Source of the DNA: Mobula hypostoma
Lineage: Eukaryota
Assembly: GCF_963921235.1 (NCBI RefSeq)
Contig: NC_086097.1
Coordinates: 96,102,001-96,166,000, forward strand
Reading direction: 5' to 3'
Length of the DNA: 64,000 nt
The notes beneath the pieces were generated by a model. It had not been told where the DNA came from, made no database searches, and was given only the letters and a program-made list of their open reading frames with translations. Position 1 is the stretch's first letter. The number at the start of each line of letters is the position of its first letter. This document shows positions 1 through 8,090 of this stretch, one piece after another. The position numbers were made by a program, and so were the translations under genes.

Positions 1-136
1 GAGCGAGGTCCTCGATGAATACTTCTCTTCGGTATTCACCAATGAGAGGGAACTTGATGACGGTGAGGACAATATGAGTGAGGTTGATGTTCTGGAGCAT
101 GTTGATATTAAGGGAGAGGAGGTGTTGGAGTTGTTA

Positions 137-512
137 CTTGTTACATACACCTGTTAGGGTGCATTCTCCAGTTACCTTATAAGGTAACCGTAGCCTTCAG
201 CCAGGAGCAGATGTCATCAGGTGGTTCCCAACCTTCACTGAGTGTTTCGACCCTTAACCACGACACTCTCCAGTTGGTGGGCTGGCAGTGGTGGCCAAAT
301 CACTGCCCATCTGCTCCTGGCTTCCAGCTCCCCTCCTCTCGCCTACTCCAAATCCAACAAGAAGCTCGTTCTGCCTCTTCCCCCATCCTACGAGCTGCTT
401 GTTTTTTGCTCCTTTCGTCCAGGCCCAGATCTGACAATAACCGCCATGCTGGTTTGGCTGGGAAACCTCCGCAGCTGATCTCCACAGGGAACAACCATGC
501 CTGCAATAAGAC
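137..512 (-). mobile_element. 3' end of a Hero-like RLE non-LTR retrotransposon (family A)
   Basis: Minus-strand ORF ends AWLFPVEISCGGFPAKPAWRLLSDLGL..MGEEAERASCWIWSRR, the C-terminus of Hero/R2-superfamily proteins, followed by a structured 3' UTR. It splits the CR1 reading frame EEVLELL|DKSPG. Confidence 0.8.
199..322 (-). ncRNA. Candidate non-circularly permuted hammerhead ribozyme in the Hero-A 3' UTR
   Basis: CTGATGA (220-214), GAAA (248-245) and GTC (264-262), with stem I gtggtt/aaccac, stem III gagtgt/acactc and a 15-bp closing helix. Same architecture as 13409-13527. Confidence 0.65.
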
Positions 513-2185
513 GATAAGTCCCGGGGCCTGACGGAATATTCCCCAGGCTGCTCCACGAGGCAAGGGAAGCGATTGCTGAGCTTTCTGGCTAGGATCTTTA
601 TGTCCTCGTCATCCATGGGAATGGTACCGGAGGATTGGAGGGAGGCGAATGTTGCCCCCTTGTTCAAAAAAGTTAGTAGGGATAGTCCGGGTAATTATAG
701 ACCAGTGAGCCTCATCTGTGGTGGGAAAGCTGTTGGAAAATATTCTTAGAGATAGGATCTCTGGGCATTTAGAGAATCATGGTCTGATCAGGGACAGTCA
801 GCATGGCTTTGTGAAGAGCAGATCATGTCTAACAAGCCTGATAGAGTTCTTTGAGGAGGTGACCAGGCATATAGATGAGGGTAGTGCAGTGGATGTGATC
901 TATATGGATTTTAGTAAGGCATTTGAGAAGATTCCACATGGTAGGCTTATTCAGAAAGTCAGAAGGCATGGGATCCAGGGAAGTTTGGCCAGGTGGATTC
1001 AGAATTGGCTTGCCTGCAGAAGGCAGAGGGTTATGGTGGAAGGAGTACATTCAGATTGGAGGGTTGTGACTAGTGGTGTCCCACAAGGATCTGTTCTGGA
1101 ACCTCTACTTTTCGTGATTTATATTAATGACCCGGATGTGGGGGTAGAAGGGTGGGTTGGCAAGTTTGCAGACGACACAAAGGTTGGAGGTGTTGTAGAT
1201 AATGTAGAGGATTGTCGAAGATTGCAGAGAGACATTGATAGGTTGCAGAAGTGGGCTGAGAAGTGGCAGATGGAGTTCAACCGGGAGAAGTATGAGGTGG
1301 TACACTTTGGAAGGACAAACTCCAAGGCAGAGTACAAAGTAAATGGCAGGATACTTGGTAGTGTGGAGGAGCAGAGGGATCTGGGGGTACATGTCCACAG
1401 ATCCCTGAAAGTTGCCTCACAGGTAGATAGGGTAGTTAAGAATGCTTATGGGGTGTTGGCTTTCATAAGTCGAGGGACAGAGTTTAAGAGTCGCAATGCA
1501 GCTCTGTAAAACTCTGGTTAGGCCACACTTGGAGTACTGTGTCCAGTTCTGGTCGCCTCACTATAGGAAAGGATGTGGAAGCATTGGAAAGGGTACAGAG
1601 GAGATTTACCAGGATGCTGCCTGGTTTAGAGAGTATGCATTACGATCAGAGATTAAGGGAGCTAGGGCTTTACTCTTTAGAGAGAAGAAGGATGAGAGGA
1701 GACATGATAGAGGTGTACAAGATATTAAGAGGAATAGATAGAGTGGACAGCCAGCGCCTCTTCCCCAGGGCACTGCTGCTCAATACAAGAGGACATGGCT
1801 TTAAGGTAAGGGGTGGGAAGTTCAAGGGGGATATTAGAGGAAGAATTTTTACTCAGAGAGTGGTTGGTGCGTGGAATGCACTGCCTGAGTCAGTGGTGGA
1901 GGCAGATACACTCGTGAAGTTTAAGAGACTACTAGACAGGTATATGGAGGAATTTAAGATGGGGGGGTATATGGGAGGCAGGGTTTGAGGGTCAGCACAA
2001 CATTGTGGGCCAAAGGGCCTGTAATGTGCTGTACTATTCTATGTTCTATAGTCAATTAATCTTAACATTCTACCTGATTTGAAGAGGTTGGGCAGTCTTA
2101 GATTTTATTCCTTGAGTATAGAAGGGTGACAATAACAACAGTTAAAAGATATTTGCACAGTTACATGGAAAGGAAAGGTTTAGAC

Positions 2186-2265
2186 CAGGGGTTCCAAACT
2201 GTTCTTATGCCATGGACCAGTACCAGTAAGCAAGGGGTCCATGTACCCCAGGTTGGGAAGCCATG
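2186..2265. mobile_element. 80-bp hAT (Charlie-type) MITE
   Basis: Imperfect TIRs caggggttccaaac / gttgggaagccatg. The flanking 8-mers gtttagac / gtttaaag (6/8 match) fit a decayed 8-bp TSD. Confidence 0.7.
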
Positions 2266-2319
2266 GTTTAAAGGTATGTGGGCAAATGAGACTGGGTAGA
2301 TGGGCATCTAGTCTGTATG

Positions 2320-2512
2320 ACAAGAGAGACCGCAGATGCTAGAAATCTGGAGCAGCACATTCAAAGTACTGGAGGAACTCAGCAAGTCAGGCAGTATCTG
2401 AAGGAACAAGCAGTTGACATTTCAAACCGAGACCTTTCATCAGGACTTCATAAACAGGATGAAGGGTCTCATCCTGATACGTTAATGGTTCATTTCCCTC
2501 CGTTGATGCTGT
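2320..2512. mobile_element. Inverted pair of decayed Penelope terminal-repeat (pLTR) fragments
   Basis: Minus-strand copy (gcagatgctagaaat..gagacctttcatcaggact) followed by a plus-strand copy (gatgaagggtctc..gatgctg), both similar to the repeat at 5393 and 31825. Confidence 0.7.
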
Positions 2513-3194
2513 TTTATATGAATGAGCTGGACCATTGGCCCTGATTTCTGTGCTGTATTACTCTAGATACTGTAACTAAATGCAGTTCAAATAGTAACTG
2601 TTCTTTACTCTTAACTTTTCAATCAGTTCTTATTCAAGATCAACAGAGCATCAATATTGAATGTACATTGCATCTTCAATAGAGTGGATGAATTAACAGA
2701 TAGTAGATGTTGTGATCTAATTGCCATTATAGAAGTATAGCTGCAGGGTGATTGAAGCTGGAAACTAAACATTTGAGTCATTAAGCACAGAAATGGGCTC
2801 TTTGGATCACTGAGTTGACGTTGACTTACATGCCCCCTTGCATTAGTCTTCTACTAATCCTATTTTATCCTCCAAACATACCCATCAACTTCCTTTTGAT
2901 TTCACGATTCAACTCCACACCAGGAGCATCTTACATTGTAGCCCACCTATCTTTGGGATGTGTGAGAAAATGGGAGTCTTTCAGAGGAAACCATTTATTT
3001 GCAATAAAAACCTTATCCCGACCTCCAGAACTGAGATGTTATCTCTGCTGCTGTATCATGATGCCGAGAAGGATATTTAACGACGGAGGGGGGGAAATTT
3101 GTTAATAAGGGATTATGTCAGTACAGTAGTTAGAAAGAATTTTGGCGCATTAGATTGTGGCATAGAACTAGAATTTGTTGAGTAGAATAAATGC

Positions 3195-3650
3195 CAGGAG
3201 TATTGGAGTTTGAAGAGACTTGGTATGTCACCAAAGATTCGAGCTAATTTCTGCAGATGTACCACGGAGAGCATTCTGACCCCTTGCATTACTGTTGGTA
3301 TGGAGGCTCCAATGCACACGATCAAACAAAGCTGGAGAGGTTTTTAGACACAGCCAGCAATACTTTAGAACCCTCCTCACCATCAAAGACATCTTCAGAA
3401 GGCAGTAGCCATCATTAAGATCCCTCATCCAGTTCTGGAGTCTGAGACCCTCACCAAAACTTAGGTACAGCTTCATCCCCTCTGCCATCACATTTCTGAG
3501 TGGTCCAGGAACACTGCTCCGCCATTCCTGTTTTGCAGTAATTATCTTCATTGCAACATATAATAAATCGATATGCCTGCACTGTACTACTGCCACAAAA
3601 CAACAATTTCACGACTTCTGTCAGTGATAATGAATTTGATTCTGATTCCA
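3195..3650 (+). mobile_element. Rex1/Babar-type LINE 3' fragment
   Basis: Similar to 62900-63268 (ttggtatgtcaccaaag..gagag..ctg..tgcat..ggtatgg); ends in a gattctgattc tail. Confidence 0.75.
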
Positions 3651-3741
3651 TAAGACTGAACTGTCTGAACTTTAATTTGACAGTGTTTTTTCTATCACCG
3701 TCTTCTGTCTATTTGTTATAACTGAACGGGTGATACAGTGG

Positions 3742-3860
3742 AACAAGGGTCTCAACCCAAAACATCGACTGTTTATGCTTTTCCATAGATGCTGTCTACC
3801 CTGCTGAGTTCCTCCAGCATTTTGTGTGTGTTGCTTTGGATTTCCAGCACCTGTAGACCT
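3742..3860 (+). mobile_element. Short Penelope pLTR fragment with 12-bp TSD
   Basis: Flanked by gtgatacagtgg at 3730-3741 and 3861-3872; the body matches the pLTR family. Confidence 0.8.
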
Positions 3861-4127
3861 GTGATACAGTGGGCTGCTTCTACGTCGTAATTCGTTGAGA
3901 AGTAGTGATGGCCAGAGAACATTGTATCCAATAAGTGGAACAGAGTGAAACTTAAATTTTGAAATCAGTGAAGTTGTACTGACCTATTTTGAACAACTGT
4001 GTATGTATCCACATTGCCATCATTTAAAAAAAAATACAAGGTGCATCTTTACACAATTGGAAAAACCAAGTTACCCAGTTTTTAAGGGTAAATTTATTCT
4101 AGCCTAACATTTTGCAGGAGGGAGGAA

Positions 4128-4245
4128 TAGCTGGTGCAGCTCATCGAGCTGATGCTTCACAGATGGAGCAACCTGGGTTCAATATTTATCTATGGTGCTG
4201 TCTGCATAGACTTTGCGCTTTCTTCCAGTGTGTTTCCTGCAAGTT
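4128..4245 (+). mobile_element. tRNA-derived V-SINE 5' half (3' half at about 6520-6660, split by CR1)
   Basis: B-box-like ctgggttcaatat followed by the V-domain-like gctgtctgcatagactttgc..gtgtttcct. It resumes after the CR1 with aggttaataggctaattagccatcgtaaattg. Confidence 0.55.
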
Positions 4246-5392
4246 AATTATAGAATTATAGAAATTTGCAGCACATTACAGGCCCTTCAGCCCTCATTGT
4301 TGTACTAACCATGTAACCTACTTTAGAAACTGCCTAGAATTACCTTATTGCATAGCCTCTACCACTGTCACTGGCAATGCATTCCACACACCCACCACTC
4401 TCGGTGTGGGGAAAGGAAACTTACCTCTGACATCCCCCTTATACCTATGCACTTCCCACAGTAGCCTGGGGTATATCTCATCCAGTCCTGGCAACTTATC
4501 TAATTTAGTATCTTTCAAAAGCTCTAGCACATCCTCTTTCTTAATGTCTATACACTCAAGCGTTTCAGTCTACCACAAGTCATCCCCACGATTGTCAATG
4601 TTCTTTTCACTGGTGAATACTAAAGTAAAGTATTCATTAAGTACTTCCACTACTTCCTCCAGCTCCATACACATTTCCACAATTGCACCTGATTGGTCCT
4701 ATTCTCACATGGCTCATCCCCTTGGTCTTCACATACTTGCCTTAGGGTTTTCCTTAATCCTGCTCGCCAAGGCCTTCTCATGGCCCCTTCTAGCTTTCCT
4801 AATTTCATTCTTGAGCTCCTTCCTGGCACCCTTATAATTTTCTAGAGCTCTAACAGTACCTAGTTTCTTGAACCTTTCATAAGCTTTTCTTTTTCTTCTT
4901 AACTAGATTTTCTATATTCTTTGTACAACATGGTTCTTTTCCCTTACCATCCTTTCCCTGCCTCAATGGAATATACCTATGTAGAACACCATGCAAATGT
5001 TCCCTGAACATTTGCCACATTTCTGCTATGCATTTTGCTGAAAACATGTTCCCAAGTTCCTGCCTAATAGCATCATATTTCCCCCTACCCCAATTAAATG
5101 TTTTCCCGAATTGTCTGCTCTTATCCCTCTCCAGCACTATGGTAAAGGAAATAAGAGTTGTGATCACTACCTCCAAAGTGTTCTCCCAACGAGAGATCTG
5201 ACACCTGACCAGGTTCATTTCCGAGTACCAGATCAAGTACAGTCTCTCCTCTAGTTGGGTTATCTACATATTGCATCAGGGAACCTTCTCAAACGCACCT
5301 AACAAACTCCACCCCATCTAATCCCCTTGCTGTAAGATGTCAGTCAATATTAGGAAAGTCAAAATCACCCATCAGAACAACCCTATTATTAT

Positions 5393-5529
5393 CACAAACA
5401 ACAGGAATTCTGCAGATGCTGGAAATTCAAGCAACACACATCAAAGTTGCTGGTGAACGCAGCAGGCCAGGCAGCATCTATAGGAAGAGGCGCAGTCGAC
5501 GTTTCAGGCCGAGACCCTTCGTCAGGACT
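5393..5529 (-). mobile_element. Penelope pLTR fragment with 14-bp TSD and intact minimal hammerhead
   Basis: aaccctattattat is duplicated at 5379-5392 and 5530-5543. Near-identical to 31882-32016. Confidence 0.9.
5494..5529 (-). ncRNA. Minimal type I hammerhead ribozyme (PLE type)
   Basis: Minus strand reads agtc-CTGACGA-agg-gtctcgg-cct-GAAA-cGTC-gact: stem I agtc/gact, stem II agg/cct, palindromic ACGT in place of stem III. Confidence 0.85.
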
Positions 5530-5690
5530 AACCCTATTATTATTGTACCATTCCAGAATCTCAACGCTCTTAAGTTCATCTGCCTTGTTTATGCTACTTC
5601 TTGCATCAAAATAGACACATCTCAAACCATCTGGCTGAGTGCATCTTTGCTCTATCACCTGCTTATCCTTCCTCACAAAATCCCTACAAG

Positions 5691-6269
5691 TGTCGTGGTT
5701 TCTCGTTTCTCACAAACGACAAGGAGATGCAGAGATCTCGTCAAGACGTTTTAAACTTTAATTTGCAAATCAAAGCTGAGACAATCAGAAAGCTAGTAGC
5801 TGACTGCCCATCGAGGCTTGTATACAACATTTTTTATAGCAATTTCCTATCTTAGCTACATTATCATATCCAGTCGGCCTGTGATTACATATCATCAATA
5901 TATCCGCTCTCGACTTTCCACTATTGTTTTACTCCCCAACTTAATTATGTCCTAGTTTACATTTTAGACCAGGTGTCCTCTCATCCCTAACCACAGTTAT
6001 TTCTTAATTAGTCTTGTGTTGACATACTGCCACATATTTCATCACCTTACTTGCCACCGTTATCTTTCTACTTGGTTTCATTCTAGTTCTCTTCATGAAT
6101 TAATAGTGATTAGGTCAAAAGTCATGGCTACATAGTGAATACCCTCTATTCAGCTAGCAGTGGTTACATAGTAAATGTAGAAAATACAATGTGTGCATTT
6201 GAGTAAATACTGTTGAGTAAATACTGTAATACCTAGAAAATACAATGTATGCATTTACATTTTCCAATA
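5691..6269 (-). mobile_element. Probable solo LTR
   Basis: About 580-bp insertion in CR1, flanked by (ta)caag direct repeats. Minus strand shows TATAAAA (5838-5832), ATTAAA (5762-5757) and a CA end; the 5' end reads TA rather than TG. Confidence 0.6.
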
Positions 6270-7394
6270 CAAGCTGTCTCTACTTGTGCACCAAATGCCC
6301 CATCCTCTGCCTTTTCACTTCAGTTCCCACCTCCCTTCAAATCTAGTTTAAACCCTCCCTCCCAGTTATTGGTTCCCTTCCAATTCAGGTGCAACCTGTC
6401 CCACTTGTACAGGTCACTCCTTCCCCAGTAAAGGTTCCATTGATCCAAGAACTTGAAACCCTGCCCCTACAGCATCTCCTCAGCCACTCATTCATCTGTG
6501 CTGTCTTCCTGTTTTGCTCTCACTTTTCCTTCCTTTCAAAGCCATACAGGTTAATAGGCTAATTAGCCATCGTAAATTGTTTCTTGTGTCAATGGATGGT
6601 AGAATCTGGGGTTGTTGATGAGAATATGCAAGGAATCTGAGAGGGAATGAGATTGCTCTCTGATATGGCATGGCTTCAGCTTCATGTGCAAGGCACTATA
6701 AGGTAACTGCAAAAATTGTAAAATATGACTGTTAAGTACACAAATTAAAAGTAAATTATCTAAATCCAGAATATGTTTGATGCTTAGTTTTATGCAGTTT
6801 AATTAGCATTAATTATAAAAATGTGATTAAGGCCGCAATTTTTTTGTTTGAATGGTTTTAGCAAAAGCTTGCTGAACAGTCTGAAGAGATCCATGTAATT
6901 ATAATTAGCACTTGTGTTGCTGAAAAAGACATATTTTGATACTTTTCCATAATATTTCTTAAATAATCTCACTTCTGGTCCCTGTCCTGGTCAATGTTAT
7001 GGCAAGAAGTGAATATTTTAAGGCGTGGTGGTCAATTAAGCTATAGTGTGCAATAAAATGTGTATTCTAACAAACAAAAACTATTTTATAAGATAATTCC
7101 CAAAAATGAGTATGCCTTTCATCTTTTAAACTCACTGGATATTGCCACCCCAACCATCCACCTGTCTACAGACCATTTGATGAGCATCTTGTAGAAAGTG
7201 GCAGAGTACAAAGATTTAAAAACCTGGGTGAAATGTTAAAATTGAGACGAGCACAAAATGCAATGAATGAGAATTGATGCAGATTACAACACTTAGTAAA
7301 GATTTTGAGGACTGTAACTGGTTAGCTGAATGGTTAGAAAAGTGGAAGGTAAAATTTTATACAGTGAAGTGATGACTGACAGAAAGAATAAAGA

Positions 7395-8090
7395 GCTCCT
7401 CCCTATCATTGAGCACAAGAAGCGCTTCCACAAGAAAGTGGCATCCATCGTCAAGGACCCCCATCATCTAGGCCATGTTCTCTTCTCACTACTACCATTG
7501 GGTAAAAGGTACTGGAGCCATTGGTCCCACGCCACCAGGTCCAGGAACATTTATTACCCTTCAACCATTAGGCTTCTGAACAAACATGGATAACTTCAAT
7601 CATCTCAATGCTGAACTGACTCCACAGCCTAAAGACTCACTTTCAATAATTTTACGTAGTATTTTCTTTTTTAATTATTTGCATGGTTTGTCTTATTTTG
7701 CACATTGGTTGTTTGTCAGTCTTTATTATTTAAGGTTTTTCATAACGAATCTCAAGGTAATATATGATGAGTCATAAAGCACTATAGACCATTCAGCCCA
7801 TCTAGTCCACGTTAAACTGTTATTCTGCCAAGTCCCAACAACCCACACCTGGACCATAGCCCCCTATACTTCTCCCATTCATGTGCCTGTCCAAACTTAT
7901 TTTAAATATTGCAATTGAACCTACATTCACCACTTCCACTGGCAGCTTGTTCCATGCTCGCACCACCCCATTTGAAGAAGTTCCCCCTTTAATTCCCCTT
8001 AAATATTTCACCTTGCACCCTTAGCCTATGACTTCTAGTTCGCATCTGGGTGGTATACGTACTTTGATAATAAATTTACTTTGAACTTTG
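7395..8090 (+). mobile_element. Rex1-type LINE 3' fragment, interrupted by a minus-strand CR1 3' end (about 7771-8040)
   Basis: ORF reads KKVASIVKDPHHLGHVLFSLLPLGKRY..TRSRNIYYPSTIRLLN; tail aataaatttactttgaactttg. The nested piece reads VVRAWNKLPVEVV. Confidence 0.8.

Follow-up and report, generated by a model that had tools for sequence, protein, structure and literature searches.

In a 64,000-nt window of the Mobula hypostoma genome (contig NC_086097.1, positions 96,102,001 to 96,166,000 of assembly GCF_963921235.1), the 3' end of a 5'-truncated long interspersed nuclear element (LINE) carries a 124-nt domain that reads as a hammerhead ribozyme with rearranged strands. The domain lies at the boundary between the open reading frame (ORF) of the LINE and its 3' untranslated region (UTR). 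Judging from sequence comparison, we consider it probable, at roughly 0.55, that this domain is a true hammerhead-type ribozyme whose topology has not been described before, and that natural copies of the majority type would cleave themselves between positions 262 and 261 (262|261). All coordinates are positions in the window, and the motif is read on the minus strand, from 322 to 199.

Anatomy of the rearranged core

Direct reading of the letters found all segments of the rearranged hammerhead on the minus strand, so that the segments, stems and core listed in an initial annotation of this DNA all stand. The domain begins with the 5' strand of helix X (322-308), which is coding and forms 15 Watson-Crick pairs with the 3' strand (213-199), itself placed directly after A9. 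Hairpin Y (307-301 paired with 290-284, span 284..307) has 7 bp and a 10-nt loop (300-291), and its 5' strand and loop contain the stop codon. The 5' strand of stem II follows (283-279, hammerhead positions 10.1-10.5), reading AGCCC in the window copy and GGCCC in the family majority, and then helix Z, whose 6 bp (277-272 with Z' at 233-228) tie the far ends of stems I and II. The 3' strand of stem III (GAGUGU, 268-263, with U16.1 at 263) leads to H17, here C17 at 262, and to the predicted cut. The 5' strand of stem I (261-256, positions 1.1-1.6) pairs with 226-221, and an AA linker (255-254) connects it to the 3' strand of stem II (GGGUC, 253-249, with C11.1 at 249). G12, A13 and A14 (GAA, 248-246) form the GAAA box (248-245) with A15.1 at 245, the first base of the 5' strand of stem III (ACACUC, 245-240), which pairs with 268-263. 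The 3' strand of stem I (AACCAC, 226-221) ends at the base before the CUGAUGA box (220-214), in which N7 is 216 and A9 is 214.

Stems I and III each comprise 6 Watson-Crick pairs in the exact hammerhead register; stem I joins the base after GUC to the base before CUGAUGA, and stem III includes A15.1-U16.1. All 11 of the 11 invariant core bases are present in the window copy. The strand order fits none of the hammerhead types I, II and III, as the annotation had also pointed out: CUGAUGA comes last and the partner strand of stem II is supplied from upstream, with the stem II 5' strand (II-a) lying 63 nt upstream of the stem I 3' strand (I-a). At the point where the strands meet, the pairs G308-C213 (X), G307-C284 (Y), G283-C249 (stem II) and G248.A214 (G12.A9) follow in succession with 0 unpaired bases. 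In the modelled fold, helix X, hairpin Y, stem II and the stack of G12.A9 and A13.G8 on stem III form a four-way junction without an unpaired base.

Strand orders of this kind can be described with the blocks of Eckert et al. 2023 (PMC10085705). Block S consists of a stem III strand, the cleavage site and a stem I strand; block G of a stem II strand, GAAA and a stem III strand; and block C of a stem I strand, CUGAnGA and a stem II strand (PMC10085705). That non-circular permutations of the hammerhead have been published, which the annotation had mentioned, is documented by type SGC of the same study, whose order, linker and extra helix match those of the ray motif (PMC10085705).

The window copy has A-C at the 10.1-11.1 pair (283/249), which the annotation had tentatively attributed to CpG decay of a G-C pair, and the family majority confirms that G283 is the common state. 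Among 50 aligned copies, chosen for their likeness to the window, position 283 is G in 27, A in 21, C in 1 and T in 1. In public contigs from four runs, G at 283 accounts for 43394 of 44300 depth units (X19), 17/17 (X9), 42/57 (X12) and 31/50 (X14), stretches that no X14 contig covers being disregarded. A majority sequence built from 79 gap-free copies departs from the window at just two positions, 283 and 239, and has G10.1-C11.1; the domains of L006 and L008 are natural examples identical to the family majority. Positions 249-248 form a CpG that is decayed in many copies.

A 141-nt region folds at -63 kcal/mol (z = -4.3), a value as low as which was reached by 0 of 200 shuffles. Helices X, Y, Z and III together give -53.7 kcal/mol versus a minimum free energy of -58.1, and stems I and II, as pseudoknots, would contribute a further ~-8 and ~-10. 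By these calculations the fold is energetically plausible.

Simulated sequence provided a measure of chance. First-order Markov sequence totalling 425 Mb contained 2 cores in the order S-G-C whose stems I and III each reached 6 pairs or more (G-U allowed). When 5+5 pairs sufficed, 15 turned up in 365 Mb simulated, or ~41 per Gb per strand; 2 of these 15 had a short linker and 0 had a stem II with G10.1-C11.1. The core alone is expected by chance in a scan of tens of Gb; the full architecture would not be, and chance is negligible once stem II is demanded.

Variation among subfamilies and lineages

Three lineages were compared: subfamily A, to which the window copy belongs; an older subfamily B, traced via the chimeric copy L092 and represented by 20 fetched domains; and a single metagenome copy, L114, on a contig with 78% amino acid identity in the adjacent ORF. 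The majority sequences of A and B differ at 11 of the 124 positions (320, 299, 284, 282, 278, 262, 239, 238, 226, 216 and 199), with 0 differences in the invariant core bases. H17 (262) is C in A (GUC), A in 19 of the 20 B copies (GUA) and U in L114 (GUU), and it is never G. N7 (216) is U in both A and L114; the 20 B copies have C (11), T (8) or G (1). This site lies within a CpG, and if the non-C copies are put down to CpG decay the majority box of B would be CUGACGA. Position 249 in B is T in 12/20 and C in 8/20, with C249 likewise read from the CpG decay pattern. The conservation of CUGANGA, GAAA and NUH, which the initial annotation had named as a check, holds in the A majority, the B majority and L114, and U16.1 is unchanged in all three.

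Outside the core, the pair 10.2-11.2 (282-250) is G.U in A, A-U in B (18/20) and G-C in L114, while the pair 322-199 is A-U in A, A.C in B, where the change at 199 opens the outermost pair of X, and G-C in L114. The B changes at 320 and 284 (C>U) produce wobble pairs, and 299 lies in the loop of Y; 4 of the A-B differences fall in loops or linkers, and helix Z is unchanged between the two majorities. In B, 18 of the 20 copies carry C at 226, so that the outermost pair of stem I is lost, leaving 5 bp and a 3-nt linker (effectively UAA). L114 has an intact core, the change 250 U>C, and a change at 310 that gives a wobble pair. Variation thus appears to be confined mostly to positions that hammerheads leave free.

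The A-B differences compatible with the hammerhead model number 9 of 11, versus 5.1 by random placement (P = 0.016). Over 26 copies, 93.3% of cells in the helices were paired, versus 29-45% when the partners were slid (helix X 91.5%, stem I 88.5%, stem III 98.1%, Z 94.8%). Cells with double changes numbered 5, versus 2.3 +/- 1.4 in shuffles, 24 of 500 of which reached 5. The covariation score, drawn from three lineages only, was 0.090 versus 0.083 +/- 0.003 for shuffled alignments, with 16/500 shuffles reaching it. A double transversion in stem III of copy L100 was rejected as compensatory evidence: it appears to be private, and the best other matches are only 92% identical.

In the flanks, the A versus B divergence is 13/98 at the ORF end and 13/64 in the tail (4-5 B copies). 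The C-terminal 55 residues of the LINE protein agree at 52 of 55 positions between L114 (L114:2095-2259) and L002 (L002:1315-1479), against 78% overall, and this near-invariance may come from the protein or from the overlapping RNA structure. L114 is a eukaryotic LINE fragment in a metagenome collection, showing host or animal DNA among those contigs. Scans of genome-contig and viral-contig collections with the domain alignment returned no relative. A loose end in the X19 contigs represents a variant lineage that a search of the window's genome did not find.

Evidence against cleavage, rival explanations and a possible mechanism

Several results weigh against self-cleavage, beginning with the topology itself. 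The backbone is not continuous between A9 and 10.1: A214 runs on into helix X, and G283 comes after hairpin Y. The published block scheme assumes that an interrupted Block C does not occur and cites no known exception (PMC10085705). The Rfam comparison that the initial annotation had proposed came back without a ribozyme family in window positions 1-8000 (E up to 10), and without a ribozyme match in L091, L002 and L114 (E up to 1); this blank is expected, because the hammerhead models of Rfam cannot represent such a strand order. The nested structure given by RNAfold fits 9 of the 11 A-B differences likewise (P = 0.07), and the substitution test is modest and does not single out the hammerhead fold. 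In the covariation analysis, a check also proposed in the annotation, the score exceeded most shuffles, but none of the three lineages has a lineage-fixed compensatory double change in stems I, III or Z, and 4 of the 5 double changes are private to single decayed copies. In L114, helix Z keeps 4 of its 6 pairs, with two mismatches and one improved pair. The A-B divergence of the domain (~9%) is not far below the 13% of the ORF end, and at ~10% divergence 0 changes in 11 invariant bases are expected with a probability of ~30% without constraint. Among copies within the genome the domain is conserved no better than the ORF, a comparison that is uninformative on the master elements because copies decay neutrally.

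The genomic copies are, for cutting in vivo, mostly negative evidence as well. The predicted cut lies 125 nt from the common 3' end (~137), and the sampled copies hold both sides of it; the annotation had called it a puzzle that this insertion keeps the downstream part. None of the 30 loci fetched with 127 nt 3' of the cut starts at 261. The core 22-mer has 477 exact matches in the genome, and four non-element bases precede 261 in at most 2 of these 477 copies, L093 and L092. L092 (L092:896-1596) is chimeric or internally deleted: a B-type stretch coding for reverse transcriptase (RT) is joined straight to 261/262, with ~2 kb skipped. Taken alone, this joint carries no statistical weight; a rough estimate gives 0.09 such hits expected per position. 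An X19 contig joins 457 to 261 with no shared letters and is the sole joint listed over the four runs. The two joints at 261 favour cleavage in vivo only as a hint, and not as a result. Loose ends at 264 in X9 and X14 were not used, since by eye they look like diverged homologues with a broken alignment rather than true ends. As for L093 (G000:C18:146282731-146282756), it has a 3-nt deletion exactly at the predicted cut, where the loss of GTC, TCG or CGT is indistinguishable.

We hold it possible, at clearly less than even odds, that the domain is a structured RNA serving the LINE in another way, such as RT binding for target-primed reverse transcription, RNA stability or termination control. 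Its likeness to a hammerhead would then be due to descent or convergence, and it would be unable to cleave, the active fold being blocked by the clamping helices or by the backbone break that separates A9 from G10.1. Such an element would fit the retention of both sides of the cut in all sampled genomic copies, the nested alternative fold that suits the lineage differences about equally, the description of an interrupted Block C as without precedent (PMC10085705), and the recognition of structured 3' UTR elements by R2 proteins (PMC12222951). An RT-binding role, on the other hand, leaves unexplained why CUGANGA, GAAA and UH are exact and why N7 and H17 vary as they do, the latter among C, A and U and never G. 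The RT of R2Tg binds the 3'-most 67 nt of its UTR (PMC12222951), a stretch whose counterpart here is the tail 198-137, on the 3' side of the domain. The two deletion joints that end exactly at G261 likewise speak, as a hint, against an element that does not cleave.

It is unlikely, in our estimate, that the domain is a decaying relic, that is, a hammerhead from a small circular RNA or some other element that was captured into an ancestor of the LINE by RT template switching, is now functionless, and owes its conservation solely to the youth of the lineages. The ability of R2-type RTs to switch templates end to end agrees with such a capture, as do the modest difference in divergence between domain and ORF end and the unsurprising constancy of the 11 invariant bases. 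Type-SGC ribozymes, moreover, are known from putative circular RNA replicons (PMC10085705). A relic is harder to reconcile with L114, which keeps every invariant base at 22% amino acid divergence and in which 250 U>C and G-C at 322/199 improve pairs, and with a perfect four-way junction and a helix Z that look built around the core and not incidental to it. That the resemblance arose by chance and only the inverted repeat X and hairpin Y are real seems very improbable. A multi-Gb scan does meet some S-G-C cores of at least 5+5 pairs at the simulated rate, and the Rfam blank agrees with chance. The random cores lacked the G10.1-C11.1 stem II and seldom had the short linker, however; the CpG decay predicted from the model was confirmed independently; and two further lineages vary in permitted ways at N7, H17 and 10.2-11.2.

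If the domain is a self-cleaving ribozyme, as we favour, the predicted reaction would be Mg2+-dependent cleavage after H17, at 262|261. Helices in four-way junctions stack in pairs across the exchanging strands, and for this reason A9 and G10.1 could remain stacked despite the absent backbone link. Once cut, the two products would be held together by the 33 base pairs of X, Z, I and III, a state that would favour religation or an RT crossing the nick and would account for copies that keep both sides of the cut. Translation up to the stop codon would unwind X and Y, and the active fold would then form only on RNA free of terminating ribosomes. Because 33 bp hold the products and the last codons form X and Y, cleavage may be partial, reversible or translation-gated. 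Retrotransposed copies would derive from intact RNA, and the RT would jump at G261 when it met one of the occasional cleaved templates; the joints at 261 in L092 and the X19 contig are what an RT jumping from the 5' end of a cleaved template would produce. The scheme in its full form is a doubtful proposal, which we put forward tentatively: an active ribozyme of a seventh hammerhead topology (SGC with its permutation point inside Block C and a four-way junction as closure), in which the A9-G10.1 link is dispensable, cleavage is gated by translation, and G261 serves as a template-jump end that gives rise to copies such as L092 and shuffles 3' modules between LINE lineages.

The host LINE and known ribozyme systems

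The window holds a 5'-truncated copy of the LINE 3' end (subfamily A, ~507..137, minus strand). Homology extends upstream by at least 1.7 kb in many other copies, and a 30-mer from public contigs, placed just upstream of 507, has 636 occurrences in the genome versus 0 for a reversed-pattern control. Copies of the family are numerous: first-look candidates exceeded 1300 in three of the four DNA searches and numbered 1282 in the remaining one. The ORF remnant (300..506, minus strand) comprises the last 68 codons and the stop TGA at 302-300, and encodes the C-terminal part of a CCHC/PD-ExT protein. For the stop codon, 50 copies were aligned and 15 with indels excluded, leaving 35 gap-free copies, in 20 of which this TGA is the first in-frame stop. 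A premature in-frame stop at 368 (window ~366-368) is common to 7 of the 35, among L002-L060, and could mark a subfamily or reflect CpG decay that recurred. The domain is coding over its first 23 nt, and the 5' strands of X and Y are the last codons of the ORF. The annotation's placement of the motif in the 3' UTR of a retrotransposon therefore needs correcting for these 23 nt, while the assignment to a LINE 3' end with features of the R2 superfamily stands.

One copy could be extended by 6.1 kb (L091 + L002), revealing an RVT_1 domain at L091:4810-6099 (E = 3.4e-18). C-terminal to the RT, a C..C..H..C knuckle and an RHPDIV...VELT motif were recognized by eye in the protein P0001; zf-RVT scored 24.3 bits, below its cut-off of 27.5, and a PDB sequence search with the C-terminal region gave no match. 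The best PDB sequence matches of the RT are R2 proteins, with LINE-1 ORF2p scoring nearly equal. We take an RT with a zinc knuckle and a restriction-like nuclease motif behind it to be the R2-superfamily layout, the knuckle and RHPDIV...VELT motifs being assumed to define this fold. From the RT and C-terminal CCHC/PD-ExT layout of full copies, the host would be an R2-superfamily element. The Hero clade was set by RT phylogeny on Repbase sequences (PMC7650587), and the label "Hero-like" for the host LINE is plausible.

The 3' tail (137..198, minus strand) contains a hairpin at 188-171 and is a candidate RT-recognition part by analogy with R2. The 7-bp stem of this hairpin is identical in A and B, with the 4-nt loop reading UAUA versus CAUC (positions 181 and 178). 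This change restricted to the loop, together with the analogy to R2Tg, makes it more likely that the tail 198-137, and not the hammerhead domain, is the RT-recognition element. Subfamily B is without tail positions 154-151. Ray copies (3' ends of L001-L030; window 130-137, minus strand) end in ...GTAACAAG, followed by 0-2 variable TAACAAG-like units, so that the LINE ends in a short tail repeat rather than poly(A); the TAACAA-type repeat of the window copy reaches ~130.

Two other readings of the host were rejected. The element is not a 373-bp short interspersed nuclear element, since its apparent shared start at 507 came from using the truncated window copy as query and the copies extend upstream; ARAGORN found no tRNA-like head in the element. 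Nor does the ORF at 709-1509 (plus strand), which adjoins the truncated copy and encodes an RVT_1 domain (E = 2.6e-25), belong to the motif's element, being on the opposite strand and part of a different LINE; the window copy itself is without RT. The flank L001:1-816 is 93% identical to L017:2318-3140, which marks it as another repeat family.

Among known ribozymes, the closest counterpart is type SGC. These ribozymes come from putative circular RNAs in metatranscriptomes, and five of them cleaved; the natural active examples (the HRIMA-1 motif and its variants) have a ~3-nt linker from stem I to stem II, a fourth helix that ties the other ends of these stems, and 0-44 nt between stem III and the fourth helix (PMC10085705). 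The ray motif likewise has the order S, G, C and all core bases, a linker of 2 nt (AA; 3 nt in subfamily B), and a helix Z that joins the other ends of stems I and II after a 6-nt linker from stem III (PMC10085705). The 5-bp stem I and 3-nt linker of subfamily B are like the consensus of Eckert et al. (PMC10085705). Unlike in type SGC, the strands of stem II and Z precede block S instead of following CUGAnGA; Block C is split, with a 15-bp helix and a hairpin spanning the gap in a four-way junction (PMC10085705). The host also differs, being a eukaryotic LINE, and cleavage of the ray motif is a prediction, whereas five SGC examples were observed to cleave (PMC10085705). Formally, the ray motif would be type SGC circularly permuted, with the opening placed between A9 and G10.1.

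Hammerheads of type I occur in Penelope-like elements and in animal and plant retrozymes (PMC4209133, PMC4918200, bioRxiv 10.64898/2026.07.22.740005), which share with the ray motif a high copy number in an animal retroelement. Unlike the ray motif, they are classical circular permutations, often dimers or tandem repeats that give circular RNAs, and they sit in Penelope-like or non-autonomous elements rather than at the end of an ORF that encodes an R2-type C-terminal nuclease region. Non-LTR retrotransposons also carry 5' ribozymes, which are related to that of hepatitis delta virus in R2 (PMC3774820) and are twister variants in Perere-3 of Schistosoma (PMC8501958). In common with these, the ray motif is a predicted self-cleaving RNA within a LINE transcript. 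The R2 and Perere-3 ribozymes, however, lie at the 5' end and trim the element from its co-transcript, so that genome copies begin at the cut (PMC3774820, PMC8501958); the ray motif lies 125 nt from the 3' end, and copies neither start nor stop at the site. As a compact pseudoknotted RNA in an R2-superfamily 3' UTR, the domain also resembles the R2Tg pseudoknot and R2Bm, but the R2Tg element is the 3'-most 67 nt, without hammerhead boxes, a place that the tail 198-137 takes here (PMC12222951).

The hammerhead and its non-circular type-SGC permutation are already known (PMC10085705). The literature searched yielded no paper tying hammerheads to Hero or NeSL and none with a split-block hammerhead, and against that literature two features appear new: a four-way junction that bridges the split in Block C, and the placement of a putative hammerhead where the ORF of a vertebrate R2-superfamily LINE ends. 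The candidate should be of high interest to specialists in ribozymes and retrotransposons. If the domain cleaves, hammerhead permutations would extend beyond the published six, which assume unbroken blocks (PMC10085705), and a helical junction could substitute for a link of the core backbone. The literature searched contains no earlier case of a non-circularly permuted hammerhead in a eukaryotic genome, nor of a hammerhead linked to an R2-superfamily LINE; a cleaving ray motif would be the first of each. A further question would be what role a self-cutting RNA plays 125 nt from the 3' end that the retrotransposon needs for its own copying.

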